A DNA stretch of 60,243 bases, counting the filler, from Jimgerdemannia flammicorona (lineage: Eukaryota), in the NCBI GenBank assembly GCA_003990765.1. It is 2 parts of 2 records of this genome, joined end to end, with 100 filler letters (N's around TTAATTAATTAA, not from the genome) between each part and the next. Parts side by side here need not be neighbours in the genome. Positions count along the whole stretch, not along the records: positions 1 to 30,073 come from RBNJ01000456.1; 1 more part is not named here. One strand, given 5' to 3'. Shown here one piece after another: positions 3,001 to 44,440 of this stretch (position 1 is the first letter of the stretch; each line of letters begins with the position of its first letter). Position numbers and translations under genes: made by a program. The notes beneath the pieces were generated by a model. The model was not told the DNA's origin, made no database searches, and saw only the letters and a program-made list of their open reading frames with translations.

Positions 3001-3359
3001 TGTGGATCCATTCTACCCTCTCCCCTCTCTCAGCTGGGCAGTAACAGGACCCAACCATCAGCAAGCCCCATCCAGGCCTCTTCCACACTCCCCACACCAC
3101 CCAAGACCCCCAATGTCCAATGTTCCCAATGTCCCCCATCTCTTTCCGAATGAGAATACACACTTTCCCCCTCTAAACTGCTGCTGCCCCCCCATTCCTT
3201 AGTCTAATCCTGTAAGTCCACATCTGCCTCATAATGAACATCCTGCAGTAAGAAGGGGTCCACATCCAGACCCTTAAGCCAACCAAATAAATACTTCCTC
3301 CTAGCTGACCCCCATAGCCCATTAACGTTCAATGAAAAAATCCTAGTTATACTGTTCAT
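1..3359 (-). pseudogene. LINE A ORF2 (APE endonuclease + reverse transcriptase), disrupted
   Basis: Motifs MNSITRIFSLNVNGL, GGDFN, SRIDWVL, DQEKAYDRV, GVPQGDPLSP, AFADD, SGAKLNWHK, SLAGRVIVLN. Many stops and frameshifts. Confidence 0.92.
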
Positions 3360-3390
3360 ATTGAAGAAATGTTGTAATAGAGACCCTAAC

Positions 3391-5286
3391 CTATAATTCC
3401 ATACTTATCTCATCTCCCACCAAATCCAAGCACTGCTCAGCTTCTAAGTCACCCTCTGCATTATCCTGAGCATCCAGAGCCCCCAAGATTTCCTGACATT
3501 CCACCCTGTCCACTTCCTCCATATCCACCTGGTAGTCCAAGCAGACAGTACACCACTTCTCTAGTCCCTTCCTCGAATTCCACAAGAAAATTGCTCTGTC
3601 ACTCACAATCCTCCTAAGTTCCTCCTCCTGCTGATCATCAACTTGATATTCAACTGACTCCAGGAGGACCACCAGGATCTCATTCCTCATCTTCCTTGGC
3701 ACCTCCTCCCCCTGTAGGATCTCCTCCCAATGCTTCTCCTCCAATACCCTGAAGTCCTCACCCCCCAGCTCTTCAGCTGCTACCCCTTCCAAGGTCTTCC
3801 ACATCCACTTCTCCTCATCCACCACCTCCGCTGCCCTCTGAGTGATTTGTCCTTCATCCACCTCGGGGTCCACCAGCATGCTCCTTCTCACCAACTCATC
3901 CCACTCCTCATCCGGCACATCCATCAGCTCCTCCTCCCCCTCTGCCCCATCTGGAACACTATACTGAGGGTGCACACCCTCACCCATTTCGGCATCTGCC
4001 TCTAAATTGCCCTCCCTTCTCTCCTCAACTCCAATCTGAGCCCTACCCTGGACCATCTCTCCCCCCTCAGCCCAGGTGCTCTCCCATGACCCTGCAACTC
4101 TCTCCCCTGAGCTTCCACCTGCCCTATCTCCACCCAACTTCACCAACAGCTCCTTCTGGATTCTCCTCTCCTGCATCTTCTCCCAGGCCCCCTTCTCCAT
4201 TCGGACCTTCTTCCCATCCACCTCCCCCACCACCATCCTGGCCTCAAACTCCTTCCAGGCCAATTGCCTCCTCGCCACTGCCCCTTCCAGGTCCTCCTCC
4301 TCCTCCTGAGTCCCCTTCACCCTGGTGACCTTATACTCCACTGGTCTCCACTGCAGTGCTGCTGGCCAGTCCCTCGACTTCCCTGTATTCTCCTTCCCAG
4401 CCAACCTCACCCTGACATCGACATTGCCAGTTCTAAGCTCCATGCCCTCCCAGACCTTGAATCCAACATCCACAATCTCGCCATACTCCTTGACCACCTC
4501 CACCACTAACTCCCTGGTTCTTTTCTTTGACACAGTCGGGAGGTCCAACACCATCAACTGCACCACTCGGAGATCCCAGCACATGCACCATGCCATAGGG
4601 ACCACAACTCCGCCAACAATCACCCCCTTCTCCATGGCCACCAACAAGGTGTCTTCCTCCTCAAACCCCACCTCGACCCCTTCCTTTCCCCTCAAGAACT
4701 TCACCAATACTGCTCCCTTAGCCTCCTGCACCACAAGCCCCAAAATCATTCTCGCCATCACTGCCAAGCCCCGGAAGCACATCATGACCGCGAATTCTGA
4801 CCTTGACTTCTTGAGTAATGGGGCCGACACCATACCTATTACCCCATCAGCCAGGTCCCTGGGCCTCATGCCCACTCCCAGTCCTGAATTGCCAGCTGCC
4901 ATCACATCTGGATTTTTTGCCAGATCCCCAGTCACAGCTCCATCAATAGTCATATCTCCAGCCCCTACTCCCACTCCTCCCCTGCCACCTGAGACTCCCC
5001 TGGGTACACCTCCCTGTCCCCCAGCAGCCACTGTCGATGCCGTCCCCAGGCCCAGCCAACCATCAAGGCCTGCAGCCATCTTCCCCATCCTGACCTTGTC
5101 AGCAAAGGTCAATCTCTTCCCTTCTCTCTGCCTTAGCCCGCCCCTCCCTCTACCCCCAGAGCCTCAGCTAGCCATCGAGGCCCCCGGCATTCCCAAACCA
5201 TCTCTCCTCCTCCCCATCTGCTGCCAGCCAAAGGCACCATCACCCCCCTGGCTAGTACACTCACCAGTTCGATTATTGCCATCCAT
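3391..5286 (-). pseudogene. LINE A ORF1 (Gly-rich N-terminus, RRM-like middle, Glu-rich C-terminus)
   Basis: 573-aa open frame 3391-5112, in frame with an ATG at 5286 across a premature stop. Homologous to ORF1 of copies B and C. Confidence 0.8.
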
Positions 5287-5368
5287 GTTGATAGTTGCTA
5301 GGCACCAAAAACATAGTAAAAAGTATTGTCTGAGTCTTGTATCACCCGAATGTTACTGGTAAAAGGGC

Positions 5369-6734
5369 CATCCCATCCACATCTACCTCTTGGATACCTA
5401 GAAATCATGAATCCACTCAGCTGAGCACTTTTAAGAAACTCACTGAAGGAGAAAGGAATGAACTTCAAAGAAGTAGAGCATACTTCTATTGCTGACAGAC
5501 AGGACATACATATGTATGGCCAGTGCCTACCCTAACTGAAAACCCAAATAGCAATATGAGCAACTGTTACTACTCTGCACCACCTCAATAATCTGACCAC
5601 CAGAATGCTGAACTTTGTCAAATTAAGGCAAACTGCCAAGGTCCCAACCAAAGAAAGTCAAAAAGCAGCTGGATATGATCTGTATGCAGCTGAAGAAGCC
5701 ACAGTTTCCAACTGAGAAGTTAAGTAAGTCTATATAGGAATCAGTATCCAAATCTCTGAAGGACATGTTGGAAGAATATACTGTCACAGTAGCCTAGCAT
5801 TGAAAGAACTCTCAGTAGAAGGAAGAGTCATTGACAAAGATTATGTATACAGGTGAAATTATTGCCCTCATCCAAAACCATAGTTGGACACCCTTCAAGA
5901 TTCCTATTGGTTTCTGTATTATACAGATCCTATTCAAAAAAATTGAATTAACCCTGACAGTCAAGGAAGTCTCTGAACTACTATCCACTATCTGAGGATC
6001 CAAAGGATTTGGCTTATCAAATAAAGCCCCAGCCCAAACTACTGTGAATAAAGAAGAGCAATTCTACAAGAAAATCAAAGACAGATATGTACCTAGTGGC
6101 TAATGCCCCCATAATATTGAGATGTACTCTTCTCAAATGATTGATGATTGCTTCTCTTATATCAATGAACTGGCTCAAAGAAGAACTAACAGAAGGAAAG
6201 CTTCTATAACCAAAATCACTACTATTGGATTAGACAAACTACTTACACTTCAAGCTTTTATCAACTGAGCACCTATCAAGATTATGATAGACAGTAGTGC
6301 CTTAGGCAACTTCATCAATAAAGAAATAGCCAACAGACTCAAGGTCTTCACCTCTCTGGTACAACAAACTCAAGCTGTTGCCACAGCTGATGGAATCTCC
6401 TATATCATTAGTAAGGAAGTCTGCAATCTACCCTTCCAAATTGGTGACTATCGAGTACATATTATTCTCCAGATTGTATCACTTCCTGACAATGAAATCA
6501 TCCTTAGAACCCCATGGTTGAAATAAGAGAACCCTATAATTGATTGGGTAAACTATTCTCTAACCATCAAGAAAGGATACCATAACTTCAAACTGCAAGG
6601 CAAAAGAGACCCACTCAGCTCTAGTGACTCTGGACCAAAGATTACTCATATCAACAAGCTACAGCTCAAGAAATTGGCCAAGAAATGCCCTCTCTTCACC
6701 ATCTCCATCTGCCCATCCAAAGGAGAACCTGAGA
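5369..6734 (+). mobile_element. Ty3/Gypsy fragment: end of gag (zinc-knuckle remnant), dUTPase, aspartic protease
   Basis: FYC*QTGH near 5485, dUTPase motifs at 5600-6025, protease IDSSALGNFI and ILRTPWLK at 6284-6526. Confidence 0.8.
5600..6025 (+). pseudogene. Retrotransposon-borne dUTPase, decayed
   Basis: FVKLRQTAKVPTKESQKAAGYDLY, SSLA, VIDKD..YTGEI, GSKGFG (motifs I, II, III and V of the trimeric dUTPase family). Confidence 0.85.
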
Positions 6735-6855
6735 TGAAGAGGAGGAAAAAGGTCCAGCAGGAGCCAAGGGAGCGAACCCAGAGCCAGTGTCAAAATGAAT
6801 GAAAGACATGTGGAAAGGTGTATATAAGGGGGACGAACAAAGAACGTAACCAACA
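6735..6855 (-). repeat. Outer part of the PLE 3' pLTR (left TIR), separated from 18624-19018 by LINE B
   Basis: Matches 22174-22290 directly and ~22880-22998 in inverted orientation. Confidence 0.9.
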
Positions 6856-9800
6856 CATCTTTCTCCGGTACCATTTGGGTTATACAACCTTTGGAAGGTA
6901 CTCACAACATCATTTTTGGAGCAAAGAGACTAACAACATAGCAACTGATAGGTGAGCTGAGGTGTATACTGGGCAGGGTGGCCCAAGCACTTTTGAATGG
7001 CAGTAAGTTGGGAGGGGCCCAGGCCTGGGGAGGAGCATGAGGGGGCTGCTGGCAGGTGGACAAGGAAGGGGTGGAGGTACTGGTGGAGGTCAGGGGTCTG
7101 GGAGGGCGAGCTTTGCAGAGACAGTGAAGGGGAGGCAGCAGGTATCAGGGCTGGAGGGCTGGCTGAGGAGGGGCAAGGAGAACGAGAAGACAGCAGTGTA
7201 GGGGGGAGTGGCCCTTAGAAGGGGGGATAGTGAAGCTGAGGGAGTAGCAGCTAGGGGGAGTGTGACTACTGATGGCAAAGGGACTGCTAATCTGGAAAAA
7301 AATCCAGATGTAATGACTGTTGGTGAGGCTGAGCGGTTGGGGCTTGGAAGACAAGGAGATTTGGCAGATGGTGTGACAGGCCTGGCAGTGGCCCCATTAC
7401 TCAAGAAATCGATCTCAGCATTTACGGTTACACTGTGCTTCTGGGGCTTAGCGGTGACAGCGAAAATGGTACTGGGACTTATTGCTAAGCAGATGGCAGG
7501 AGCTGCTTTGGTGAAGTTTCTGAAGGGACTGGAGGGTGTGGAGGTGGGTTTTGAGGAGGCTGAACCACTGGAGGAGGCACTGAAGGTTGGGTTGGTGGTT
7601 GGAGAGATGTGTGTTCCAATGGCGAGGTGTTTGAAATGGGATCTGAGAGTGATATAACTTCTGGTGAAAGGAGTACCCATGGTGACAGCAATGAAGATGA
7701 GAAAGAGAGTAGAGGATGTCATGGCAGAGTATGGAGAGGTGGTGGATATTGGATTCAGGGTCTGGGAAGGGACCATGCTCAGGACTGGAGACATGGATAT
7801 GAGGATTTGACTGGCTGGGAAAGAGGCTACTGGGAAGGCAAGGGACTGGCCTTCGGTGATGGTTTGGGGAGCAATCTTGTGTAAGGTGACAAGGGTGAAA
7901 GGAAGTGAAGAAGAGGAAGAAGATTTATTGGAAGCACTAGAAGAACTGGATGGGGCTGTGGAGTGGTGAGCAAAGGCCTAGAAGACTTTCGAGAAGGTGA
8001 TGCACCTGGAGGTGGTGAATGGAAAGAGGGTTCGAGTAGACAAGGTGCAGTGGAAAAGGGCTCAGGGTTGGAAGAGACAGAAGGAGTTGCTGGCTAAACT
8101 GGGGGGTGGACCACAGAAGAATGCAAGCAAGATGACGAGTATGGAAGGGGCCAAAGCGAGCATCTGAGCTGGTGAGAGGAGTGGGAATGATGGGGTGGAG
8201 ACAGGGAAGACAAAAGAGGTGAAGACTAGCAACCCATATACTGATGGCACCTTGGAGGTTTGGGATGAGGTCTAGGAGAACTCCCCCACTCCTTCCCCTC
8301 TTATCAGACATGGCCCGGCTACCAGAAATAAGACTGGGGAGGATGTGATGATGCTGGGACCCAGCAGGTGAAATTTAGCATTCTGGAGGTAATGGATGGG
8401 GATCAAGTAGTGGTGGCTGGGGAGGAGGAACTGGTGGATGTCCCAGAGGTGTGGGATGAGGATGCGAGTGCCAGAGCTGACACCATGATGCTGGATAGAG
8501 GGAGACCAGTGACCCCTGGTGGAAAGGAGGTGGGGAACCTACTTTGGATGTGCAGGATGATGAATAACCTGGCAGTGGAAGAGTTGGGGGAGGTGGACCT
8601 GCATGTGATGGGTGACAAACACTGGATGAGAATTTTGCAGGAGGAAGGAGTGATGATGGCAATGAAGGCAGAAATTCTCACAGTGTATCTGGAGGAGGAA
8701 GGGTATGAGGTGGACAAGAAGCAGGAGGCAGAGATGGCAGTTATCGCTAGAGAGAGGGCTGAGTACTGCTGGAACAAGCATCATAGGCTGCAGCTTTGGC
8801 AGGAGGCATGCATCAAGTACAGAGAGGAGTTTGAGGAGAAGGCTGATGAGGAGATGAATGAGCTGTTGGCTGGATTGGAGGCTCAGAGGGCTGAAGAGAA
8901 GGAGGTGATGGCAGAACATAATCTGGACACAGCACAGGAGGAGATGAGCATAGAGCAGTAGAGATCAACTGAGAACAAATAGTATTTCATTATGAACAGT
9001 ACAACCAACATTTTTTCTTTGAACGTGAATAGGCTAAGGGATACAGTTAGACATCAGAACATTTTCATTTGGCTGAAGGGATTGGAGGCCGATCTCTTCC
9101 TCTTGTAGGACATCAGGTGTGAGGATGATTCTGATAGGATGGAATGGACAAAGGAATGGGGTGGTATGGTGATTTGGAACAGCAAGGTTGGGATTCTGGT
9201 TCAGAAAGGCAGAGGGGAAATAAGGGATGTGAGGAGCTGGGGGGAGAGACTGGTCTGGGGTGAGTGGATTCATGTGGGTTGGGAGCCAGTCATAGTTGGC
9301 TCCTGTTACTGCCCTGCTGTGTGGGGGGAGCATGTGGATTGGGTGAAGAGGCTCCAGGAGAGTGAGATCCTTGCTGAGGCTGGGGTGGATATGCTTGGAG
9401 GAGATTTCAATATGGTTCGAGATATACAGTTGGATAGAACTGATAGAGGATGGAGTGCTGAGAGTAGAAGTGGGGGGCTGGCGATGTGAGAGGAAGTCAA
9501 AAGGCTAGGAGTGCTGGTTGATGCTAGTAGGGAGTTCTGGGGGGACAGGAGGGTATATACGCATTGGGCTAGAGGCCTGGAGACAAGGATTGATTGGATT
9601 CTGATGGCCAACTGTTAGGGCCACAATGTTTGGAAGGTACTAGAGGTGGAATGGTGTCCATGATCAGATCACTGGGGCCTTTTGGGACAGGGATATTTTG
9701 GGGGAAGTGGTGATAGGCCTGGACATTGGTGCCTAAATTCCTCCTTGTTGGATGATGAGTCTCGGTGAGAGGAGTGGGTGAAAGACATTCAGCTGAAGGT

Positions 9801-11267
9801 GGAGAACTAGAGACAAGAAGGGGTCTCAATTGAGGTGTAATGGGTGAGGATGAAAGAGATGGCCAGGATGTACTAGAGTGAGGCTGGCAGAGAGGCAGGG
9901 AAGTAGCATAGGCAGAGAGTACATTGGGCTTCTACTAGATTGGCTAGGCTCCTGAAGGAGTGGGTGAGACTAGCAATAGTGGAGGGAGAAGAGGAGTGGA
10001 GAACAATGAGGGTGAAGATAGAGGTTGGGGAACTACAACAGATGCTGCAGGAAGAGGAAGAGTCAAGGATGCAAGGCCTGATGGCTCGGCTTCATTGGCA
10101 GGGGCTGGAGGAAGGGGAGAGGCCTTCCAAGTTTCTCATGAGGACACTTTGAGTGAGAAGGGTATAACAGCAGTGGGAAGGGGTACTTGATTCAGGTGGT
10201 ATACTAGTGTATGGTGTATAGGAGATCCTTGGAACACTGAAGGAGTGATGGAGTGGACTGTAGAGTGAGGAGGAGGGTGGGGCAGATGCTACAGCCATTG
10301 ACTGAACATTAGAGAATTGGCACCCACTACAAGCTAAGGGACTAGGAGACCTGGTGATGCCTGTAAGGGAGGATGAGATCTACCAGGTTCTTGCTACAAC
10401 AGCCTTGGGTATGGCACCTGGAGAGGATGGCTACCCTGGGACTTCTGGAAGCAAATGGTTGGAGTCCTGGGCATGTTGGGGGAGCTGATGGCACTGTGTG
10501 ACTTTATATTACAGTCGGGGAGATGGGTGGGGGAGCAGGATCTTGGGCTGGTGATGCTGCTTTATAAGAACAAAGGAAGGCAAGAGGATTGGAAGAACTG
10601 GCAGCTGATAATGTTGCTAGATATGGACAGAAAGTTGGTGACTAAGGTGGTGATCACAAGACTACAGAAGGTGGCCCAGCAAATTGTGGGTGTTGAGCAG
10701 AGGGGCTTTATAGGGGGTCGGCTTATTAGAGATGGCACAGCCTGGGTACATGGAGTTATTGAAGGTACTAGAGCCTGTGGACTAGATGGGCATCTTGTCT
10801 TCTTGGACCAGGAGAAGGCTTATGACCGGGTGCAGTAAGTCTGGCTGGTGAAAGTATTAGATAGAATTGGAGTTTCAGTCCCATTTCGGTCAGTGATGGT
10901 CAGCCTACTGGAAGGGAGTAGGGCTGTACTCACATGTAATGGGCATAGAGGGGTAGTATTCCCTCTGGGTAGGGGGGTGCCCCAGGGGGACCCGCTGTCC
11001 CCCATTTTGTATGCTCTTTCCTTAGAACTCCTAATGGACCGAATTTGGCAGAGGATAGTGGGGCTCTCTATCTATAGAGTCGGCTGGAAAGTTGGAGCCT
11101 TTGCAGATGACATAGTGGTTGGTTTGGGAGAGATTGCTGATGTCGAGGAGCTCAAGAAGGCAGTGGAGTAGTATGAGAAGAACTCCATCTTTCTCTGATA
11201 ACATTCAGGTTACACAATCTTTTGGCAATACTTTCGACATAGTTTCTGGAGAAAAGCTACTAGTATC

Positions 11268-13298
11268 ATGGCGATCAACAAGCATCCAGAGGTGCATACT
11301 GGGCAGAGTGGCCCTGGAGCATTTGAATGGCAACAAGTGGGGAGAGGCCCCGGCTTGGGGGGGAGTATGAGGGGCCTGCTGGTGGGAGGCCGCAGTGGTG
11401 GAGGGGGCAGAGCTGAAGGCCAAGGGTCTGGCAGGGTGAGCTTTGCAGAGAAGGTGAAGGGGGGTCAGCAGGGAGCTAGACTGGAGAGCTGGCTGAGAGG
11501 GGGGAAGGTACCGGCAAAGGCTACCAGGCAGCAACCTCTTAGGGGTATCTCTCTGGAGGGCCATAGGGGTGGAGCTGGGGGAGTAGTGGCTGGGGTAGGG
11601 ACTGCTGATGGGGGTGTGATGGGTGATCTGGAAAAAAATCTAGATGGGACTGCTGATGGTGAGCCAAGTGGTAGAAAGGGCACGAGGCCCAGGGACCTGG
11701 CAGATGGTATAATGGGACTGGTGATGGCTCCATTACTCAAGAAGTTGATCTTGGCATTCGCAGTCACACTGTGCTTCCAGGGCTTAGTGGTGATGGCGAA
11801 AATGGTGTTGGGGCTTATTACTAAGCAGGTGGCAGGAGCAGCTTCAGTGAAGTTTCTGAAGAGACTGGAGGAGGTGGAGGTGGGTTTTGAGGAGGTTGAA
11901 CTGCTGGAAGAGGCACTGAAGGTTGGGTTGGTAGTTGGGGAGGTGTGTGTTCTGATGGCGAGGTGTTTGAAATGGGATCTGAGGGTGGTCCAACTGCTGG
12001 TGAAAGGAGTACCCACGGTGATAGTGATGGAGATGAGGAAGAGAGTGGAGGATGTCATGGCGGAGTATGGAGAGGTGGTGGATATCGGATTCAGGGTCTG
12101 GGAAGGGACTACACTCAGGACTGGGGACATGGATGTGAGGATTTGGCTGGCTGGAAAAGAGGCTACTGGAAAGATGAGGGACTGGCCTTCGGTAATGGTT
12201 TGGGGAGTGTTTCTGTGCAAGGTGACGCAGGTGAAAGGAAGCGAAGAAGAGGAGAAAGATTTATTAGAAGTGCTGGAGGAGCTGGATGGAGCTGTAGAAT
12301 GGTGAGCTAAGGCCTGGAAGACTTTCAAGGAGTTGATGCACTTGGAGGTGGTGGATGGAAAGAAGATTTGAGTGGACAAGATGCAGTGAGAAAGGGCTCA
12401 GGGGCGAAAGAGGCAGAAGGACCTGCTGGCTAAACTGGGGGGTGGACCACAGAAGGATGAAAGCATGAAGATGGGTGCAGAAGGGGCCAGAGCGAGTGTC
12501 GGGGCTAGTGTGAGGAGTGGGAACAATGGGGCAAAGACAGGGAAGGCAAAAGAGGTGAAGATTTGCAACCCATATGCTGATGGCACCTTGGAGGTGTGGG
12601 ATGAAGTCTGGGAGAACTCCCCCACTCCCTCCCCTCTTATCAGGCATGGCCTGGCTTCCAGGAATAAGTCTGGGGAGGACATGATGATGCTGGGGACCCA
12701 GCAGGTGAAATTTAGCATTCTGGAGGTGATGAATGGAGACCAAGTAGTGGCGGCTGGAGAGGAGGAACTGGTGGATGTCCTGGAGGTATGGGATGAGGAC
12801 ATGAGTGCTGGAGCTGACACTATGATGCTGGACAGAGAGAGGCTGGTGACCCCTGGCGGGAAGGAGGTGGGAAACCTACTTTGGGTGTGCCAGATGATGA
12901 ATAACCTGGTGGCAGAAGAGCTGGGGGAGGTGGACTTGCATGGGATGGGTGATGAGCACTGGATGAGAATTTTGCAGGAGGAAGGAGTGGTGATGGCGCT
13001 GAAGGTGGAAATTCTTATAGTGTATCTAGAGGAGGAAGGGTATGAGGTGGACAAGGAGAGGGAGGCAGAGTTGGTGGTTATCACTGGGGAGAAGGCTGAG
13101 TACTGTTGGAACAGGTATCATGGGTTGCAGCTTTGGCAAGAGGCTTACATTGAGTACAGAGAGGAGTTTGAGGAGAAGGCTGATGAGGAGATGAATGAGC
13201 TGTTGGCTGGACTGGAGGCTCAGAGGGCTGAAGAGGAGGAGGTGATGGCTGAACATAATCTGGACATGGCACAGGAGGAGAGGGGCATGGAGCAGTAG
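11268..13298 (+). pseudogene. LINE C ORF1
   Basis: ORFs 11268-12305 and 12465-13298 are in the same frame, separated by TGA stops. Homologous to LINE A ORF1. Confidence 0.85.
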
Positions 13299-13327
13299 GA
13301 ATTAATTGAGAACAAACCATATTCATT

Positions 13328-16300
13328 ATGAACAGTACAACCAATATTTTTTCTTTGAACATAAATGGGCTAAGGGGCACAGTTAGATGCAGGAATATTT
13401 TTATTTGGTTGAAGGGATTGGAGGCCAATCTCTTCCTCTTGCAGGATGTCAGGTACGAGGATGATTCCGATAGGATGGAATGGACTAAGGAATGGGGTGG
13501 CATGGCAATTTGGAACAGCAAGGTTGGGATTCTGGTTCAGAAAGGCAGAGGGGAGATAAGTGATGTGAGGAGCTGGGGAGAGAGACTGGTCTGGGGAGAG
13601 TGGATTCATGCAGGTTGGGAGCCAGTCACAGTTGGCTCCTGTTACTGCCCTGCTATGTGGGGGGAGTATGTGGATTGGGTGAAAGGGCTCCTGGAGAGTG
13701 GGATCCTTGCTGAAGCTGGGTTGGATATGCTTGGAGGAGATTTCAATATGGTTTGGGATGTATGGCTGGATAGAACTGATGGAGGATGGGGTGCTGAGAG
13801 CAGGAGTGGGGGGCTGGCAATGTGGAAGGAGGTCAAAAGGCTAGGAGCACTGGTGGATGTTGGTAGGGAGTACTGGGGGGACAGGAGGGTGTATATGCAT
13901 TGGGCTGGAGGTCTGGGGACAAGGATAGACTGGATTCTGATGGCTGACTGTTGGGGCTGTGGTGTTTAGAAGGTGCTAGAGATAGAATGGTGTCCGTGGT
14001 CAGATCACTGGGGCCTTTTGGAATAGAGGTGTTTTGGGGGAAGTGGTGATGGGCCTGGACATTGGCACCTAAATTCCTCCTTGTTGGATGATGAGTCCCA
14101 GTGAGAGGAGTGGGCAAAAGACATTCAGCTAAAGGTGGCAAATTGGTGGCAGGAAGGGGCCACAATTGGGGTTCAGTAGATGAGGATGAAAGAGATGGCC
14201 AGGATGTACTGGAGCGAGGCTGGCAGAGTGGCTGGGAAGCAGTGAAGGCAGAGAGTACATTAGGCTTCTACTAGATTGACTAGGCTCCTAGAGGAGTGGG
14301 CAAGACTGGCTGTAGTGGAGGGAGAAGAGAATTGGAGAATAACAAGGGTAAAGATGGAGGTTGGAGAACTACAACAGGTGCTGCAGGAAGAGGAAGAGTT
14401 AAGAATATAAGGCCTAGTGGCATGGCTTCATTGGCAGGGGCTGGAGGAAGGGGAGAGGCCTTCCAAGTTTCTCTCAAGGACACTTCGAGTGAGAAGGGTA
14501 CAGCAGCGGTGGGAAGGAGTACTTGACTTGGATGATATACTAGTGCATGGTATATAGGATATCCTTAGAATGCTGAAGGTGTGATGGAGTGGATTGTGGA
14601 GTGAGGAGGAGGGTGGGACAGATGCTACAGCCATTGACCAAACATTAGAAGATTGGCACCCACCACAAGCTGAGAGGTTAGGGGACCTGGTAATGCCTGT
14701 AAAGGAGGACGAGATCTGCTAGATTCTTGCCATGACAGCCTTGGGTATGGTGCCTGGGGAGGATGGCCTACTCTGGGACTTCTGGAAGCAAATGGTTGGA
14801 GTCCCAGGCATGTTGGGAGAGTTGACAGCACTGTGTGACTTTATATTGATGGGTGGGGGAGCAGGATCTTAGGCTGGTGACGCTGCTTTATAAGAACAAA
14901 GGAAGGTGAGAGGATTGGAAGAACTGGCAGCCGATTATGTTACTAGATATGGACAGAAAGTTGGTGACTAAGGTGGTGGTCGCAAGGCTACAGAAGGTAG
15001 CCTGGCAAATTGTGAGTGATGAGCAGAGGGGCTTCATAGGAGGTCGGCTTATTAGAGATAGCACAGCCTGGGTACATGGAGTTATTGAAGGTACTCGAGC
15101 CTGTGGACTAGATGGGCATCTTGTCTTCTTGGACCAGGAGAAGGCTTATGACTGGGTGTGGCAAGTCTGGCTGGTAAAAGTATTAGATAGAATTGGGGTT
15201 CCAGTCCCATTTTGGTTGGTAATGGTCAGCCTACTGGAAAGGAGTAGGGCTGCACTCATGTGTAATAGGCATAGAGGGGTAGCATTCCCTCTGGATAGGG
15301 GAGTGCCCCAGAGGGACCCACTGTCCCCCATTTTGTATGCACTTTCCTTGGAACCTCTAATGGACAGGATTTGACAGAGGATAGTAGGGCTCTCTATCTA
15401 TAGAGTTGGCTGGAAAGTTGGAGCCTTTGAAGATGACATGGTGGTTGGTTTGGAAGTGACTACAGATGTCGAGGAGCTCAAGAAGACAGTGGAGTGGTAT
15501 GAGGAGAACTCTGGGGCGAAGCTGAATTGGCACAAGTACGAAACAATGGTGCTGGGCAATGGCCTGGTGGGTGGAGAAGTTATTGGAACAATTGTCTCCA
15601 CCAGAGAGGCAGTGTGGTACTTGGGCATCTATTTGTTGGTCTATGGATCTGTTCTGCCCAGGCTGTGGTGGGAGCAGAGGATTGGAATTTGGGAGAAGGA
15701 CCTGCAGAGTTGGGGGGGAAGATACTTCTCTCTGGCAGGAAGGATCTCAATTTTGAATATATACTGGCTGCCAAAGCTGTGGTATTTGGCTTATCATCTG
15801 GACTTCCCAGCCTGGGTGGTGAAGAGATTGGTGAAAGTAGCCAAGGGATGGATTTGGGCTGACAGACAGAGTCAGATTGGTTGGGAGACTTTGTCCCTAC
15901 CAGTGGCAAGAGGTGGTCTTGGGCTGGTGGACTTCCCCAAGAGACTACACTGCTTGAGGGCATGGTGGCTTAGGAGGGCAGTGGAGTTGTGTGGAGGGGG
16001 CTGGGTTCCCCTGCTGCAGATGGTATAGAAGAGGCAGTCATCACCAAGAGGCTTGACTGGTGATCTTCTTTCATTAGTTGGGCTTCAGAACACTGCACAA
16101 CTGAGATATAAAGGCTTCTGGTGGGGGATAGCTGAGGGGGTACACTGCATTGGTATTCACTGGCAAGGGGATGAGGGGGAGAGGGCTTGGGGTCCAGCAA
16201 TGTGGAGATGGAATGGTATTCTTCTGGGAGGTATGCCTTTACTTGAGTTCAATATTGGTGATGGAATCAAATACCAAAGGGGACCGGGCCAGGATCTGTG

Positions 16301-16974
16301 GCCTAGTGGTTGACAAGGAGTTAGAATTGGTAAGGAGTGGGACTAGCATGGGGTTTGGACCTGGAGTGCTGCAGTGAAAAATTAGATGCCACTGAAGTAC
16401 TGGGTGGTCTGGTGGCATGTGCTGAGGAGGAATGTAATGCTTAACTTCTGCTCAGGACACCTTGTCATAGGGGGCTACTTTGACTGTGAGGAGTGCCATA
16501 ATGTAGGGCAGGAAGGGAGATTTGTACAGATGCCAGAACATTGGCTAGGGGAGTGTGAGGTGTTGGGAGACTTTTGGTAGGCCATTGGAGACCGCTTGGG
16601 GGTAAGGCGTAGGGGAGATGATGTACAGGGGAGGTGGGAGGACCTGAGGGATCGATTGATAGGAGGGGTAGGGGAGGAGTAGATTACTCTAGGCTGGGCA
16701 TTGGCAATTTGGGTTGGGCTGGCTGGTCACTGGCTATTTGTATTTGAGGAGGAGAGGCGATAGAGCTTGGAGAGCTGGTTATCACGGTGGCAGTACCTTA
16801 TGGAGGATATCTTGACAGGCTGGTGGCTTGGTTGGGGTGGTAGAGGGAGTTGGAGGTGCCACTTAGTGGTGAAAATCTGTGGTCAGAGTAGTGGGAGAGT
16901 TGGAGTTATTAGTGAGAGGGTGGTCTTTGTATGTAAAGAAATGGGGAGGGGCCCCCTGATGGGGATTGGATAGT
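13328..16974 (+). pseudogene. LINE C ORF2: APE endonuclease, RT and C-terminal Cys/His finger
   Basis: FSLNINGL, LQDVR, GGDFN, TRIDWIL, SDH, DQEKAYD, GVPQRDPLSP, AFEDD, CEEC...EHWLGEC. Confidence 0.92.
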
Positions 16975-17032
16975 AGGTGGTGATATTGTATACTTATTCA
17001 TAGACTAATAATAAAGACAGAGTCCAAGGGAC

Positions 17033-17067
<35 letters not shown>

Positions 17068-18623
17068 GAGGAGAACTCTGGAGTGAAGCTGAATTGGTAC
17101 AAATGTGAAACAATGGTGCTAGGCAATGGTCTGGTGGGAGGAGAGGTTATTGGAATGATTGTCCCTACCAGAGAGATGGTACAGTACTTGAGCATCTATT
17201 TGTCAGTCTATAGATCTGTTCTATCTAGGCTGTGGTGGGAGCAGAGGGTTGGAATCTGAGAGGAGGACCTGCGGGGTTGGGGGGAAGACACTTCTCTCTG
17301 GCAGGAAGGATCTCGATTTTGAATGTATACTGACTGCCAAAGCTGTGGTATTTGACTTATCATCTGGACTTCCCAGCCTGAGTAGTGAAGAGATTGGTGA
17401 AGGTGGCCAAGGGATGGATTTGGGCTGGTAGACAGGGTCAGATTGGTTGGGAGACCTTGTCCCTACTGGTGGCGAGAGGTGGTCTTGGACTGGTAGACTT
17501 CCCCAAACGACTACACTGCTTGAGGGCATGGTGGCTTAAGAGGGCAGTGGAGTTACAAGGAGGGGGTTGGGTTCCCCTGCTGCAGAAGGTCTAGGAGAGG
17601 CGGTCATCACCAAGAGGCTTGACTGGTGATCTTCTTTCATTAGTTGGGCTTCGGAACACTGCACAATTGTGATATAAAGGCTCCTGGTGGGGGATAGCAG
17701 AGGGGGCACACCATATTGGTATTCACTGGCAAGGGGATGAGGGGGAGAGGGCTTGGGACCCAGTGATGTGGAGATGGGATGGCATTCTACTGGGCAGCGT
17801 ACCTTTACCTGAGTTCAACATTAGTGATGGAGTAGAATGTTAGAGGTGACCAGGCCAGGATCTGTGGCCTAGTGGTTGGCAAGGAGTTGGAATTGGAGAG
17901 AAGTGGAACTGGTATGGAGTTTGGATCTGGAGTACTACAGTGAAAAAATGGATGCCGCTGAAGTACTGAGTGGTCTGGTGGCGTATGCTGAGGAGGAATG
18001 TGATGCTTAACTTCTGCTCAGGATACCTTATCATAGAGGGCTGCTTTGACTATGAGGAGTGCTTTAATGTAGGACAGAAGGGGAGTTTTATACAGATGCC
18101 AGAACATTGGCTTGGAGAGTGTGAGGTGTTGGGAGGCTTTTGGTGGGCCATTGGGGACTGCTTGGGGGTGAGGCGTAGGGGAGATGATGTAAGGGGGAGG
18201 TGGGAGGACCTGAGGGATCGATTGGTAGGAGGGGTAGGGGTGGAGTAGATTACCCTAGGCTGGGCATTGGCTATTTGGATTGGGCTGGCCAGTCACTGGC
18301 TATTTGTATTTGAGGAGGAGAGGCGACAGAGCTTGGGGAGCCAGTTATCACAATGGCAGTACCTTATGGAGGACACCTTGACAGGCTGGTGGCTTGGTTG
18401 GGGGCTGCAGGGGGGTCAGAGGTACTGCTTGGTGGTGAAAATCTGTGATCAGAGTGGTGGGAGGGTTGGAGTCATTGGTGAGAGGGTGGTCTTTATACAG
18501 AAAGAGGTGGGGAGGGGCCCCTCTATGGGAATTGGATAGTGGATAGTGATATTGTATACTTATTTATAGACTGGTAATAAAGGTGAAGTCCAAGTGACTA
18601 TAAAAAGGAAAAAAAAAAAAAAA

Positions 18624-19018
18624 GTAACAAAAAATGCATCAGCCATTTATTGCCATGTAAAAACATAGTCCTTATATACAAAATATGACATCCCAAATGG
18701 GAGGATGTGCTACAACTTGGGGCAAACCGAATTAGGAACCACATGATCACCAGAGATAGGCAGAGATAAAGGGGGAGCCAATCTCAGTTGTAGGATAAAA
18801 ATCACAAACAAACACAAACAAAACAAATCCAAATCGAGATTAAAAAACATCTGCAGACCCTGGAGGGGTAAGCATGAGCAAGGGGTGAGGCTGAAACAGA
18901 GCGAGCCACAGTGAGCCCAAGTGAAGTGAGGGGCCAAAGGCAGCAGAGGAGAGTGGAGTAAGGCCGAGACCCCAGAGTGAGCACGAGACCCCGGAGGGGG
19001 CAAGGATGTTTTTTAATC
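18624..19018 (-). repeat. Inner part of the PLE 3' pLTR, including a 14-bp inverted repeat and a 153-bp loop
   Basis: Direct repeat of ~22282-22676. GATTAAAAAACATC (18838-18851) pairs with GATGTTTTTTAATC (19005-19018). Confidence 0.92.
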
Positions 19019-19019
19019 C

Positions 19020-21030
19020 TCTCCAGCAACCAGAAGTACCAGAAGGTGACGAAAATGCAAAATGAGAGTGATGGATTAAAGAAGAAATAGAAGGAAGATG
19101 TGAACAAGCAATCAGAGGGCGTCGAGAAAGAGATGAAAGTCCATGGTATAAAAGAGAAGAGTGCAGGACAGTATCAGGGTGTTAAGCAATCCAGTGAGTA
19201 CGATCAAATAGTATGACAAGAATTGGGGGTGGGAAAAAAGAGAGGGTATGGAGAGAGTAAGGGGGGAGGGAGGGAAGGAAGGGGGGGTAAAGAGGAGAGA
19301 GTAGGGAAGAGTGAACAACAGACCATTCAATAGAAGCAAGCAGATTGCGAATAATAAAAATAGAGTAGGCATGACAATGGACCACAAAGTTGCCAAGAAC
19401 CTGAATAGCAGACACCCAATCAGAATGACAGGAGCAGCATAGTGCAAGATGATGAGCCTCACTACGAATGCATTCAAGAAGAGTGTGATAAGGATGATTG
19501 AACAAGAAGTCAGGGAACTGTTGGGAACAGGGAAAATGGGAATAAACAACAGTTCGGAAAGGAGAAAGAGAAATGGAAAGGTCCAAAAAGGGGATACTAG
19601 TCATACTGCACACCCAGGTAATAGAATTGTGGGGAGGGTAGATGCCCAGGAACACACTAGGGATATCAATACCAGCAACAGTGAAGACAATAAAGTCATC
19701 AATATATCAGCGAAAGAAGATATCCCCAGCCCAGAACACAATGGAAAGAGGTGAAGTAATATCATATAACGTACACAATTCATGGGCCAGACCAATAAGG
19801 TTGGCAAAGGTGGGGGTACAATTCATTTCCATGGCAATATCAGAAGTCTGGTGAAAGGAGCCAAGGGCCAACTCAAAATAATTAGAGCTGTAGATGAGGA
19901 GCGTAAGCTCAACAATGGAAGCCAGTGAAACTGGGGAATCCAAAGGAAAAACAATAGAACCCAGGAAGCAAAGGCAATCATTGATCTCATCAAAACAAAT
20001 AGCAGTATAAAAGAAAGAGAAGTCACCAGAGGCCAAATGGGAAAAATGGTGGACAGGCACAATGGTGGAGCAGAGAAGGGTGAGCTCCTGAGTATTATGA
20101 AGAATGGTATACTCAGGCCCAAGATGGTGTTGTAAGAGAGCCATCCAGGAGAGAAAGAAGTGAGATAACCACTTCGAAATCTCAGTGGTAGGAGAACTGT
20201 AAGCAGCCATAATGGGATGCCAAGCCAAAATAGGCTTGTGAACTTTAGGAAGAGTATAAAAAACCAGAAGAGAAACATCCGGGGAGGACAAAGAGTCCTG
20301 AAAGAAGTTAAAAATGGGGTTCACGAATGGAGAGTCCAAAAGCAACCTAGCACAAGCCAGAGAAACCTGAAGAAGAGTGAGAATCTCATCCAATCCAAGA
20401 GCACTAGGCTCATAAGCCATGGCTCGAAGGAGGGCAGAAAGGCCATCAAGATAGAGTGACTTAGGAATAAGTGCAAAACCCTGATTCTTATCAGTGACTG
20501 TGAGCAAATGCATAGGCAATTGCTTGACTGATTTAAGCGTGTTATGCACAGCACAGTCTGAAACCAAGCAAGAGCGAGCACGTCTGGGAACAGACAGTGT
20601 GTAGGCCATGTCGAGGAATACATAGTATGAAGAGACATTGGGAGGGGGGACCCAATTGCTAGGAACAAAATAATGAGAGGGTATCTCACCACAATCTTGA
20701 AAGAAAATGGCAAGGTCAAGAGCATGATGAAAATGTGTGAGATGAGCTGGATCAGTGAAAGAGAATTGTGAGGGAGTCATAGGAAAAATGAAACAAGGAC
20801 CCAAGGATAAGGCAAAGACTTGAAGGGGAGAAAGAGGGTAGTCAGCCAGAGAAAAAAAGGAGGAGATAAAAGAGTTTCAAGAGAAGAGTAAACCCGAAAG
20901 TTCAGGACAAGCAACTGGGAAAGGCGAAGGGGGGACAATATGAGGAACCACTCAGGGCACACCAGAAGCGACGACGGAATCCGAGAAGGGATGGAGACAC
21001 CAGGGGAGAACTATGCCAGGGGGAAGTTTA
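19020..21030 (-). pseudogene. Penelope-type reverse transcriptase without a GIY-YIG domain
   Basis: One frame with a few stops: LSPLQVFALSLGPCF, TDKNQGFALI, FYTLPKVHK..WHPI, SGDFSFFYTAI, FHQTSDIAMEMNCTPTFANL, FR*YIDD (YIDD at 19695-19706), IPFLDLSI, thumb HPYH..IRSE, and terminal PLIACSHLPSISSLI. Confidence 0.9.
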
Positions 21031-22245
21031 AGAGCAGGAGGCCTTCCCCTTCCCTCTGACTTTTTTTGAAGGTGGTGAGCCCGACAAATGGGAGCACACC
21101 CCATCAGAGTACCAGACCTTGTGGCTACAGGCTTTCGTGCAGCCCTTACATTCAGGGGTATGGGTGGAGGAGGTGGAGGAGGAACTGGCAGAGGAGGCCA
21201 AAGGCGAGTGAGCAGCCGAAGGGGCAGCAGTATGAGGAACACCACCATGAGGACAGACAGACTTAGCCAGGTGCCAGTAGGCATGGTGGAGGCAACCGGA
21301 GCAGACAGCATAAGGCCAGGCCCTGACAGGGCAAGAACCAAGTTGGTGGCCATGTTTGGGGGCAGGGGGAACAGAGGAGGAAGCCTTGGTGGGAGAGGGA
21401 GACTGGGAAGAGGCCGATGAAGCTTGATTGGGCTTGGCAGGAGTCTTGGCAGGGGTCTTGGAGGGGGCCTTGGTAGCAGCAGTGGTGAAGAAATGAACCT
21501 CAGCACAAGCAGTAGTATGAGCTTTAACACAAATGGCCTTGGAGACTGAAACCTCAGGGGAGGCAGGCAGGGGGGTAGTGGTGGTAGCACGAGCAGCAGC
21601 AGTAGCATGTGACATCTCCTGCTTGTGAAGGCAAGCAACAAAAGAGGTGCTAGTGAGGAGAAAACAATGCACAGCATTGATGTTGGTGGTGACAGAAGAA
21701 ACATCTTGGATGGTGAAGCTACAGAAGGGGGCAGCATCTGAAAGGTGAGAGGAGGTGAAGGTCACAAAGGCAGCACAGGCATGGTGGAAGGAGACAGAAG
21801 TAGTGGTGGCAGAAGTGGCAGTAGCATCAGTGGTGGCAAGCTTGGCAGTAGCAGTGGTGGCACAAACCTCTTCAGAGAGGGCTTGGCAGTGGGCCTCAGA
21901 GAGAATGGAGTAGCAGATGGTGGGTGGAGCAATGACATCAATGTCATGGCAGAGATGAGCCTCCTTGGCAGAGAGGGTAAGAACCAACCAGAACTGGGAG
22001 AGGAGCAAATGACCAGAGGGACGAAGGTCCAAGGGAAGGGAAAGGATGGCAGATGAGATGTAGGTCTTGAATGAGACAGTGGTGGGGGTGAAGGTGGGGG
22101 GAGGAGGAGGAGGAAGAGCCTCATCCATGAGCTTGTCAATAAAGATGGAGGCCCTGAGAGCAGGCAGTACAGCAGAGGAGGAAGAAGGCCCAGCAGGAGC
22201 CAAGGGAGTGAACCCAGAGCCAGTGTCAAAATGAATGGAAGACAT
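21028..22245 (-). CDS. PLE ORF1: Ala/Thr-rich helical region, Pro/Lys linker, two Cys/His clusters, basic tail
   Basis: Uninterrupted ~405-codon frame from the ATG at 22245 (MSSIHFDTG), which lies inside the pLTR. Contains CSGCLHHAYWHLAKSVCPH and CKGCTKACSHKVWYSDGVCSH. Confidence 0.7.
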   Translation of the reverse strand: MSSIHFDTGSGFTPLAPAGPSSSSAVLPALRASIFIDKLMDEALPPPPPPTFTPTTVSFKTYISSAILSLPLDLRPSGHLLLSQFWLVLTLSAKEAHLCHDIDVIAPPTICYSILSEAHCQALSEEVCATTATAKLATTDATATSATTTSVSFHHACAAFVTFTSSHLSDAAPFCSFTIQDVSSVTTNINAVHCFLLTSTSFVACLHKQEMSHATAAARATTTTPLPASPEVSVSKAICVKAHTTACAEVHFFTTAATKAPSKTPAKTPAKPNQASSASSQSPSPTKASSSVPPAPKHGHQLGSCPVRAWPYAVCSGCLHHAYWHLAKSVCPHGGVPHTAAPSAAHSPLASSASSSSTSSTHTPECKGCTKACSHKVWYSDGVCSHLSGSPPSKKVRGKGKASCS

Positions 22246-22998
22246 GTAAAAAGGTATATATAAGGGAGACAAATAAAGAATATAACCAAAAATGCATCAG
22301 CCATTTATTGCCACATAAAAACATGGTCCTTATATACAAAATATGACATCCCAAATGGGAGGACGTGCCACAACTCGGGGCAAACCGAATTAGGAACCAC
22401 ATGACTGCCAGAGATAGGCAGAGATAAAGGGGGAGCCAATCCCAGTTGCAGGATAAAAATCACAAACAAATACAAACAAAACAAATCCAAATTGAGATTA
22501 AAAAATATCTGCAGACCCCGGAGGGGTGAGTATGAGCAAGGGGTGAGGCTGAAACAGAGCGAGCCGCAGTGAGCCCAAGCGAAGTGAGGGGCTGAAGGTA
22601 GCAGAGGGAAGTGGAGTAAGGCCAAGACCCCAGAGTGAGTATGAGACCCTGAAGGGGGCAAGGATGTTTTTTAATCTCAATTTGGATTTGTTTTGTTTGT
22701 ATTTGTTTGTGATTTTTATCCTGCAACTGGGATTGGCTCCTCCTTTATCTCCACCTATCTCCAGTAATCATGTGATTCCTAATTCGGTTCACTCTGAGTT
22801 ATGGTACATCCTCCCATTTGAGATGTCATATTTTGTATATAAGGACTGTGTTTTTACATGGCAATAAATGGCTGATGCATTTTCAGTTACATTCTTTGTT
22901 CATCCCCCTTATATATGCCTTTCCACATGTCTTCCATTCGTTTTAACACTGGCTCTGGGTTCACTTCCTTGGCTCCTGTGGACCTTCTTCCTCCTTCA
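22174..22998. repeat. Large hairpin: PLE 5' pLTR plus inverted copy (arms 22174-22509 and 22663-22998, loop 22510-22662)
   Basis: The arms are reverse complements with scattered transitions. Confidence 0.93.
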
Positions 22999-23500
22999 CT
23001 TGTTCAAAGTTGACAGCTATGTCAGACCACTACTCCAGAAAGTCCAAGATACATTTCTGAACCAAACCACAGAACCACCTATATCTGTCATTATCAATGA
23101 TCAAGAAAAATACAAAGTGGAACAAATCCTCAACAAATATAGCCACAAGAACTATCTAAATAGTACAACAATACTAGATCAAATTAGAAGGTCTCAATGA
23201 GGATATCAAAAGCTAAGAAGGGGAGAGTTGTAAGTGTATAACCTCCAAGCCACCAAAATTACATGTCATTCTCAGAACTAATTTGAAAATCACATGTGAG
23301 ACTACAAAACAAGTTACTGAAGAGATCATCTGGTTATACAAAATATGCCAGCAAATATGAGAACCTACCACCAAGACACAAGAATACTAGAAGAAGTACT
23401 ACAACCATAAGACCAACTCTAAACCTCTATAACTAGTTTAGTATACTATACTATTACAAAAGGAAACTAAAAGTACCAAACTCAAACTGAGACAAGAAGG
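22999..23500 (+). mobile_element. Chromovirus 3' end: integrase tail and chromodomain remnant, PPT, start of LTR at 23229
   Basis: VSY-like ...VRP...PISVIINDQEKYKVEQIL. PPT AGAAGGGGAGAG followed by TGTAAG. The right boundary is uncertain. Confidence 0.65.
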
Positions 23501-24003
23501 ACCCTATCTCATCTATCAAGAGTTCATGAACTATACTATCAAACTCAAGACTAAGATACACTGCAACTATACAAGACCATTACTTAGCAGAAGCAAAATG
23601 CATTTGAATAACTCTATTTACTCTATATATCTGTATTACCTCTATTGGAGAATGATAGATACTTCATCTGAACTCAAGAAAGCTAACATCATCAAAACCA
23701 ATCTCAAGCCATCCACATGATAGATATTACTACTAGAAATTGTCTTGGATTATAGAAAATATCATTTCTGAGAGGTTCAAACTCCCAGCTGTGATATTGA
23801 GAGTCCTTGCCCTAGACAAGGATGGCCAGTTCTTACAAATATACTAGTAGGCCAAAAAAAAAAGAGAGCCAAGACCTGTTATCCTTGTACAACTACTGCC
23901 ACCAAGGATAGCCTTAATCTTGCAAGAGATAGAAGTGACAATACCTTGAAACTGATGATATATATCAGAAGTCAGAAAACTGCTCAGACTTTGTCAGAGA
24001 TGA

Positions 24004-30073: not shown

Positions 30074-30173
30074 NNNNNNNNNNNNNNNNNNNNNNNNNNN
30101 NNNNNNNNNNNNNNNNNTTAATTAATTAANNNNNNNNNNNNNNNNNNNNNNNNNNNNNNNNNNNNNNNNNNNN
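30074..30173. other. Assembly gap / artificial contig linker
   Basis: N44-TTAATTAATTAA-N44, 100 bp in total, with stop codons in all six frames. Confidence 0.97.
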
Positions 30174-43254: not shown

Positions 43255-44440
43255 AGAGCTCTACTATGGAATTATCATATACCTGGGACAGCGAAAGATG
43301 CCCCAACATCTGGAAGAATGGACACAAATAATTATCAACAGGACATGGAAACAATTTGAAACCGATGGAGAAATACTGAAGAAAGAAAAACTACTGGTCA
43401 TACCAGAATACAAGAAGGAGCAAGTGATGAAATCAGTACATGAACTTGGCCATCTAGGAGGAACGAATACATATGACAAGGCAAGAAGAACAATATGGTG
43501 GCCAGAGATGGAGGAAGATATCAGATAATTTGTCAAGATATGTGACAAATGCCAGAAACAGAAACAAGACCAATGGAATCAAGCCCTAGGATCAGCACAC
43601 ATAGAACCAGTACCATTTGCCCATATAGCAATGGATGTAATCGGCCCTCTACCCTTGACCCTAACTGGTAACTGATACATCATTGTCATTGTAGACCTTT
43701 TCACAAAGTGGATAGAAGTAGGACCCCTCAAGGAAGCCAATGCATAGTCAATCACCGATTTCTTCCACAAGGAAATCATCTGCTGGTTCAAGACCCCAAC
43801 ACAAGTAACTACAGATAGAGGAACAGAATTTGTGAACCAGCTCTTTGAGGTTCTCTACAAGAAGTACAAGATTCAGCACATTCGGACTATAGCCTATCAC
43901 CCCCAAGGAAATGGATAAGTAGAAAGGACCAACAAAACCCTTAAGAATGTTATCACCAAGATCTGTGATAACTATGAGAACTGGGATCACTATCTGCCAA
44001 TAGCATTATCTGCTCTCCGGGATATCTGATCACAAAGTACCCACTTTACACCTCGAGAAATGCTGTTCAGAGAAGAATATTCTCAAGGAACCCTATCATC
44101 TAATGGAGATGCTGTATGGAAATATGTGGACATGGAAATATGGAGACTACACCAAATCAGGAAGAAGGCCGAGGATTACATAACCAAGGCACAGACACTA
44201 CAATGGAGGAATGCAGAAAAGACCCACAAGCCCTTGGAGATTATCAAGATAGGAGACAAGGTCCTGGTATATCGGAACATGGTAGAAGCTTCATGGTCAC
44301 GAAAACTGGAGCCCAAGTGGGAAGGACCTTACCTTGTGCAAGATATAAAAGGGACCACCTTTTGGCTACAAAAACCCTCAGGCACAATAATCCCCACCAC
44401 CATTCACCAAAACCAACTCAAGAAATATCATGGCCAGTAA
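43247..44440 (+). pseudogene. Element D integrase (own ATG, +1 frame relative to RT-RH)
   Basis: HELGH…CDKC zinc finger, AMDVIGP, TDRGTEF, VERTN, KLEPKWEGPY. Confidence 0.9.

Follow-up and report, generated by a model that had tools for sequence, protein, structure and literature searches.

Between positions 6735 and 22998 of a 60,243-nucleotide (nt) stretch of Jimgerdemannia flammicorona DNA (assembly GCA_003990765.1), the whole of which is called the window here, lies a region with a G+C content of ~50% against a window background of 20-37%. This region is one old, defective insertion of a Penelope-like retrotransposon (PLE) that encodes a reverse transcriptase (RT) and is without an endonuclease. 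The insertion sits inside another transposon, its left flank being the pol of a long terminal repeat (LTR) retrotransposon. The PLE is oriented on the minus strand and is interrupted by an APE-type long interspersed nuclear element (LINE), which itself holds a nested LINE; with both LINEs taken out, a PLE complex of ~4.49 kb is left. Read in the sense (minus) direction, this complex opens with the 3'-terminal ~336 nt of the element in inverted orientation, continues with the 3'-terminal ~500 nt in direct orientation, a partial copy that forms a pseudo-LTR (pLTR), and ends with a full unit that runs from 22173 to 18624 and resumes beyond the LINEs at 6855-6735. The parts of the element, the LINEs with their target-site duplications (TSDs), the open reading frame (ORF) of the RT and the two flanks are collected in Table 1.

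Table 1. Window coordinates of the PLE insertion, the LINEs within it and its flanks
Feature	Coordinates	Strand	Evidence or remark
Inverted 5'-truncated copy, last ~336 nt of the element	22663-22998	+ (own sense = window +)	Outer end 22998 is the element's 3' end
14-nt microhomology GATGTTTTTTAATC, direct-to-inverted switch point	22663-22676		Common to both copies
Upstream direct partial copy (pLTR), last ~500 nt, 5'-truncated at the equivalent of 19018	22174-22676	-	blastn and repeat matches
5' region of the full unit (ORF1 of the initial annotation)	20942-22173	-	Pyrimidine-rich, more than one frame open, no relatives
RT ORF with DKN motif, RT core, thumb and C-terminal linker motif PLIACSHLPSISSLI; defective	19040-20941	-	phmmer, tblastn, alignments
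3' pLTR, inner part (repeat L and end of the 3' untranslated region), up to the LINE insertion point	18624-19018	-	18624-18633 is the right LINE TSD copy
3' pLTR, outer part (repeat a)	6735-6855	-	Element 3' end at 6735; 6846-6855 is the left LINE TSD copy
First APE-type LINE, 5' part, in the PLE 3' pLTR	6856-11185	+	5' end CATCTTTCTC same as that of the nested LINE; ~10-bp TSD
Full-length nested LINE, same family as the first	11186-17064	+	29-A tail; 14-bp TSD 11172-11185/17065-17078
First LINE, 3' part, A-rich tail at its end	17065-18623	+	15498-17064 versus 17065-18630 at 83-91%
Left flank, LTR-retrotransposon pol (dUTPase, aspartic protease)	5361-6734	+	dUTPase 26 bits, RVP_2 21 bits; tblastx to window copies
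Right flank, probably degenerate LTR-retrotransposon pol, from its downstream part (weakly supported)	22999-23720	+	tblastn E 0.065, 0.15

Reverse transcriptase and endonuclease

The minus-strand frame that runs from 20876 to 18843 bears the motifs TDKN, LPKVHKP and YIDD. Read with X at both of its in-frame stops (P0001), this frame served as the query of an exhaustive phmmer search across 1.84 billion representatives, which retrieved 638 proteins at E<=1e-3. The best match, P0002, was recovered at 2e-89 with 43% identity over residues 209-609, and the best 150 of the 638 matches form the set screened for GIY-YIG domains by phmmer below. When ~170 fetched relatives were compared with the window by tblastn, 19008-20941 was the sole matching span. 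In the Pfam scan, the RT pieces remained below RVT_1 detection; the assignment to the PLE family therefore rests on phmmer. Judged by its sequence, the frame, with a DKN motif, an RT core and a thumb, can be assigned to the PLE RTs, the DKN and thumb landmarks being named here as in excerpts of a 2026 paper (PMC13159263). Word-indexed homologue searches returned 2 proteins for P0001 and 7 for P0005, a relative described below. Organism names were looked up among 30 clusters of relatives and were obtained only for Racocetra fulgida (P0003) and Stenamoeba stenopodia (P0014); the nearest named relative of the window RT lineage is from a glomeromycete. The 5' region upstream of the RT (20942-22173) matched no Pfam family and none of the ~170 relatives by tblastn, and its 422-residue frame had no usable match in the Protein Atlas. 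Open frames mean little in this region because the strand is 68% pyrimidine there and stops are rare in every frame.

The copy is dead, having lost its start codon and acquired one frameshift and two in-frame stops. The start M of P0008, a public fragment of 95 residues that is 65% identical to the window RT, corresponds to I in the window frame, and alignment with the same fragment requires a frameshift near 20850. As for the stops, the TGA at 19707-19709 aligns with the second R of the relatives' FFRRYIDD, and the TAA at 19182-19184 aligns with a Q of P0002. A non-standard genetic code was considered for these stops and rejected, since they align with R and Q codons and are accompanied by the lost start and the frameshift.

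The composition of the element is likewise skewed. Its sense strand (18843-20876, and also 22663-22998) is 68% pyrimidine (T 0.39, C 0.29), and the third codon positions of the RT frame are 49% T and 9% A. Compared with P0002, the window RT protein holds more L, S, H and C and less K, R, N and E; a comparable richness in L, S, P and F is suggested by eye for P0008. A regional mutation bias was rejected as the source of the strand skew. The inverted arm bears the element's own composition on the opposite strand, which marks the pyrimidine bias as a property of the element itself rather than of its surroundings.

An endonuclease was sought in several ways. Pfam detected no GIY-YIG domain at E<=0.1 in six ORF pieces of the element. 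A hidden Markov model (HMM) was then built from the GIY-YIG regions of 21 endonuclease-bearing (EN+) PLE matches, all of them C-terminal domains. Its best score over six frames of the whole 60-kb window was 0.6 bits, an exclusion that is weaker for any very divergent N-terminal type; the same HMM recovered a PLE-style C-terminal GIY-YIG domain in 23 of the 157 proteins collected. A phmmer search from two seed GIY-YIG domains identified 21 of the best 150 RT matches as EN+. The alignments of EN+ proteins to the window end at 19008-19032, which is where their GIY-YIG domains start. In P0002, the C-terminus lies 3 residues past the aligned linker motif, and the source contig of this protein (1271 nt, 406 codons) would have room for a genuine stop. 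P0005, a protein of 622 residues that begins with M, has its C-terminus ~30 residues past the motif. An initial annotation of this DNA had described a PLE with no GIY-YIG domain after the linker or upstream of it and had proposed the HMM scan as a check; Pfam, the six-frame scan and the relatives P0002 and P0005 all agree with that description. Its further claim that removal of the LINEs restores a unit of ~4.5 kb is borne out as well, with TSDs at both LINE insertions.

Phylogenetic trees place the window RT among proteins of the same kind. In a FastTree phylogeny of 133 rows, the window and P0002 were grouped with a support of 99, within a 23-row group devoid of EN+ rows; the 22 EN+ rows of the tree all fell into a single 47-row group (support 96). 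Pfam found no nuclease family in the 22 scanned members of the 23-row clade. In a quick IQ-TREE phylogeny of 64 chosen rows, the EN+ rows lay on one side of a branch with an SH-aLRT value of 98, and the five-row clade of the window had a support of 95. The composition of the window RT is aberrant in both trees, which weighs against its placement. Taken together, these comparisons indicate a lineage that is endonuclease-less (EN-less), whether ancestrally or by secondary loss.

Terminal repeats and mode of insertion

Repeat finding and blastn revealed direct matches between 18599-19018 and 22257-22676 (91%) and between 6738-6853 and 22174-22289 (90%). Inverted matches were found between 22176-22509 and 22663-22995 (89%) and between 6740-6850 and 22886-22995 (90%), and 22663-22998 is also inverted relative to 18614-18851, at 89-90%. 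All pairs among the three pLTR copies are 89-91% identical. The L part has 17, 12 and 8 differences private to one copy; in the 109 columns of the a part, 7 are private to the internal, 7 to the right and 6 to the left copy. Such equal divergence fits the pattern of three copies born in one event, followed by independent decay.

In all three pLTR copies (at 18660-18700 and 6805-6835 in the 3' one), TATATAAGG occurs in sense orientation and precedes AATAAATGG by ~30 nt; the ATG of AATAAATGG opens a long frame at 22304. A second TATATAAGG is present on the antisense strand of the pLTR, ~70 nt further on. The motif pair could be a bidirectional promoter plus a poly-A-like signal. The insertion point of the first LINE lies ~10-20 nt past an AATAAA in the pLTR.

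The joint between the direct and the inverted copy can be read base by base. To the left of 22663, the + strand is the antisense of the unit, up to the equivalent of 19018 (18965-19018 compared), and to the right of 22676 it is the unit's sense, from ~18853 downwards. The 14 nt at the joint, GATGTTTTTTAATC, belong to both copies because the element natively holds GATGTTTTTTAATC as an inverted repeat with halves 153 nt apart. Complementary DNAs (cDNAs) that grow towards one another, one from each DNA end, would carry perfectly matching complementary 3' termini at such a joint, which therefore fits priming from two ends. Such a joint is also the hallmark of L1 twin priming. Two-ended priming is further favored by the inverted arm stopping at the terminus of the element, within 2-5 nt of the left end. 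The arm could instead have been made at the DNA level, either by snap-back of a single cDNA on the 14-nt inverted repeat, the chief alternative for the joint, or by a later replication template switch or inverted duplication. In favor of a fold-back, the joint coincides exactly with the inverted repeat, whose halves are separated by 153 nt. Copying by fold-back, however, should proceed along the cDNA and reach the unit's 5' region, whereas the arm ends at the 3' terminus, and its final bases resemble the left end and not the internal junction. A much later duplication is also made unlikely by the equal divergence of the three copies, and an origin of the arm at the DNA level appears improbable overall.

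The outer ends had been given particular weight in the initial annotation, which stated that both stop at the same position of repeat a. Indeed, the two outer copies diverge from the internal copy within 2-5 nt of one shared position, and the last bases of the inverted arm are closer to the left end than to the internal junction. The element's 3' end reads ...CCTCCTCTTCA and is without an A-tail. Only when the right copy is given a gap of 2 nt do the outer ends share a terminal ...TCA or ...TTCA; the common TCA is therefore no more than suggestive. GGTCC at the outer ends versus GGCCC in the internal copy, which the annotation had pointed out, is noise, being 1 of the 7 internal-private differences in the 109 columns noted above. 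The same annotation had described terminal inverted repeats (TIRs) of ~330 bp ending in TG...CA. The inverted repeats themselves are real (89-90%), but they correspond to the known PLE layout. Because both outer ends are the 3' end of the element, they are automatically reverse-complementary, TG...CA included, and a terminal CA is expected by chance in 1 of 16 cases.

From these TIRs, the initial annotation had derived a defined double-stranded DNA with TG...CA ends that was inserted by a borrowed integrase or transposase. This reading can draw on terminal inverted repeats of ~334 nt at 89-90% and on the ...TTCA that both ends share when the 2-nt gap is allowed. It is opposed by the nature of the inverted arm, a 5'-truncated copy joined at a 14-nt microhomology as in other PLEs. 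Moreover, Pfam detected no integrase or transposase family in the scanned ORF pieces, the 5' region has no relatives, no TSD was seen, and TG...CA rests on 2 bases. A TIR-ended intermediate is accordingly regarded as highly improbable. Host repair, which the annotation had offered as an alternative, is the part of its inference that fits.

The surroundings of the insertion bear on the type of site that was used. On the + strand of the left flank, the dUTPase and RVP_2 matches each exceed their own cut-off (Table 1), and tblastx shows similarity to other LTR-retroelement copies in the window. The right flank resembles the left in base composition; it yielded no Pfam family, no word-indexed homologue and no usable match in the Protein Atlas. 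In one of the copies that it weakly matches, the match point appears by eye to lie downstream of an apparent RNase H ORF. Should the two flanks derive from a single host element, roughly its RT-RNase H segment may be missing between them; such a gap would agree with target DNA having been lost on insertion at a break. No duplication is visible between the flanks at the outer ends of the PLE; since the flanks are not contiguous, a TSD is not scorable. Regarding telomeres, a search for TTAGGGTTAGGG with <=1 mismatch gave 0 matches in the 60-kb window, TTAGGG being the only type searched by pattern. None of the 31 tandem-repeat rows of the window is telomere-like, and no TTAGGG-type complementary stretch was seen at the element's 3' end. 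The initial annotation had noted the lack of telomeric repeats at either end, and both the pattern search and the transposon-derived left flank agree with it. The coding sequence in the left flank, the lack of telomere arrays and the non-contiguous flanks without a duplication point to a break rather than a telomere.

The explanation preferred here, to which a probability of roughly 0.6 is assigned, is a single ancient insertion primed from two ends at a chromosomal break and resolved via the 14-nt microhomology. In this scheme, a break would arise inside the LTR retrotransposon, and both of its 3'-OH ends would prime reverse transcription from the exact 3' end of the element RNA. The long cDNA would reach the 5' end of one template and jump to the 3' end of a second, thereby generating the pLTR, while the short cDNA from the opposite side would halt after ~336 nt. 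The two cDNA 3' ends would then anneal through the element's own 14-nt inverted repeat, and host repair would complete the insertion. The scheme is akin to L1 twin priming combined with insertion independent of an endonuclease. Neither an integrase nor a TIR-ended DNA intermediate would be needed.

The same architecture might also result if the 3'-OH groups were supplied by an endonuclease in trans, through ordinary target-primed reverse transcription at staggered nicks rather than at a spontaneous break. Candidate sources are the APE of the local LINE family and a GIY-YIG nuclease encoded by an EN+ PLE at some other genomic locus. In the excerpts of Craig et al. (2021; PMC8557442) on which all statements attributed to that paper here are based, tandem and inverted pLTR structures are ascribed to properties of the GIY-YIG nuclease. 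APE-type LINEs have been active in the same stretch and left TSDs, and EN+ proteins are common in PLEs, as seen above in 21 of the best 150 RT matches and, with the HMM, in 23 of 157 stored proteins. Yet the 60-kb window contains no detected GIY-YIG, no TSD was seen at the ends of the PLE, and the element's 3' end offers no A-tail for the LINE machinery. Supply in trans is therefore considered rather unlikely.

Besides this possible source of 3'-OH groups, several points weigh against two-end priming at a break by an EN-less lineage. In an approximately unbiased (AU) test, a topology joining the five-row clade of the window with the EN+ rows was not rejected (log-likelihood 43.9 lower, p 0.124), and because of this value an ancestrally EN-less origin is not established. 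The identity of the right flank depends on tblastn matches to 43406-43492 and 51445-51531 with E values of 0.065 and 0.15. The apparent loss of target DNA could equally reflect an earlier or later deletion, or flanks that derive from two different host elements. No hammerhead was detected by Rfam at E<=1 on either strand of 18300-23200, and the CTGANGA...GAAA hammerhead core is absent from the sense strand of the pLTRs. Minimal PLE ribozymes are presumably poorly covered by Rfam. Furthermore, the evidence comes from one copy only. A 28-nt pLTR string had 0 matches in genome_contigs and viral_contigs, no sequencing run containing the element was listed, and a metagenome scan gave 5 loci, all merely 26-29% identical. 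Finally, inverted repeats are prone to misassembly, and the inverted arm, known from the assembly alone, may be affected.

The insertion is a further example of a kind of PLE already known, and a single decayed copy is a lead, not a demonstration. Its value lies in the combination of features: a nuclease-less copy with nuclease-less relatives, located inside a transposon, still has the full tandem-plus-inverted layout and a clean microhomology joint. This suggests that template jumping together with priming from two ends suffices to produce the layout and that EN-less PLEs can patch internal breaks. A broader proposal is more doubtful and is put forward only tentatively: that an EN-less PLE lineage, probably in AT-rich fungal or protist hosts, spreads to internal sites with both break ends as primers and without the ribozyme and telomere-complement tail of Athena and Coprina. 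If so, the tandem and inverted pLTR architecture of PLEs would stem from the RT and from host repair, in contrast to the current assumption, which credits the GIY-YIG nuclease. A literature keyword search, which was not exhaustive, found no account of an interstitial, break-primed EN-less PLE.

Nested LINEs and other features of the window

The LINEs landed after the PLE insertion. The first, which lies in the 3' repeat of the PLE and ends in a poly-A or A-rich tail, is flanked by the copies GTAACCAACA and GTAACAAAAA of its TSD, and the nested LINE is flanked by the copies TATGAGAAGAACTC and TATGAGGAGAACTC. LINE ORFs match Exo_endo_phos (13310-13966) and RVT_1 (14910-15371). One APE-type LINE family is present in three copies, which occupy 1-5360 (minus) and 6856-18623 (plus) of the window. 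All three have a G+C content of ~50% in the background of 20-37%, with a sense strand of G 0.36-0.39 and C 0.14 (GC skew 0.4-0.5), and all three sit within other retroelements.

A dUTPase is encoded by several of the LTR-retrotransposon copies in the window (5560-5856, 41455-41601 and 49416-50060). The left-flank copy has its dUTPase ahead of a zinc-finger-like block and the protease, whereas the order of dUTPase and zinc-finger-like block is reversed in the other two copies. Elsewhere, two runs of 44 N, at 30074-30117 and 30130-30173 (labelled assembly gaps), are found where the window is richest in A+T. Within 58000-60243, the G+C content rises to 49%, long + strand ORFs are present (58189-59780), and the 12-nt unit CGGGTACCGGAA is repeated in tandem in 5 copies at 58357-58417.

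Comparison with known systems

EN-less PLEs are generally confined to chromosome ends, where Athena and Coprina attach to telomeric overhangs via reverse-complement telomere stretches located beside hammerhead motifs (Craig et al., 2021; PMC8557442). The excerpts of PMC13159263 report Coprina at 13 chromosome ends of one Ascochyta lentis isolate and PLEs of "scattered presence" in two others. Like Coprina of fungi and other organisms and Athena of bdelloid rotifers, the window element combines a PLE-type RT carrying the DKN motif and thumb with direct terminal repeats and no GIY-YIG domain. Its RT ORF of ~600 residues also ends soon past the linker, as described for Coprina-1_Alen in those excerpts (PMC13159263). 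Unlike these elements, the window copy is interstitial, without telomere repeats at either end, without a TTAGGG-complementary 3' stretch and without a detected pLTR hammerhead. It also differs from them in bearing an inverted 5'-truncated copy, which would be unexpected where just one DNA end exists, as at a telomere.

In its anatomy, the window element is identical to the EN+ PLEs (Penelope/Poseidon, Neptune and Nematis) and to Naiad/Chlamys, with a partial tandem pLTR and an adjacent inverted 5'-truncated copy. An inverted 5'-truncated copy beside an upstream pLTR, followed by the full unit, is given as the typical PLE layout, and a hammerhead motif is placed in PLE pLTRs, with Naiads and most Chlamys lacking it (Craig et al., 2021; PMC8557442). 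In contrast to both groups, the window element has neither a C-terminal nor an N-terminal GIY-YIG domain, as far as the searches above detect. Its RT further stands outside the group that holds all EN+ rows, with the alternative left by the AU test (p 0.124).

Non-telomeric EN-less PLEs have been described previously, namely PLE-X in the 28S rDNA of Selaginella and Chara and MjPLE01 of the kuruma shrimp, and these must rely on some other source of 3'-OH groups (Craig et al., 2021; PMC8557442). The window element resembles them in being EN-less and non-telomeric. It differs in its descent: PLE-X and MjPLE01 arose within EN+ clades according to the same excerpts, whereas the nearest relatives of the window RT are all EN-less. 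The target is different as well, since PLE-X uses a specific rDNA site and the window copy lies in the coding region of a transposon.

Outside the PLEs, the closest parallels are offered by L1. The window element belongs to a different RT class, has no poly-A tail and shows a direct arm with a template jump that gives rise to a pseudo-LTR. L1 twin priming was reportedly described by Ostertag and Kazazian in 2001, and endonuclease-independent L1 insertion is said to go back to Morrish et al. in 2002. With these L1 processes taken together, the window insertion shares an inverted 5'-truncated segment that meets a direct segment at a microhomology, the lack of a TSD and an apparent loss of target sequence.

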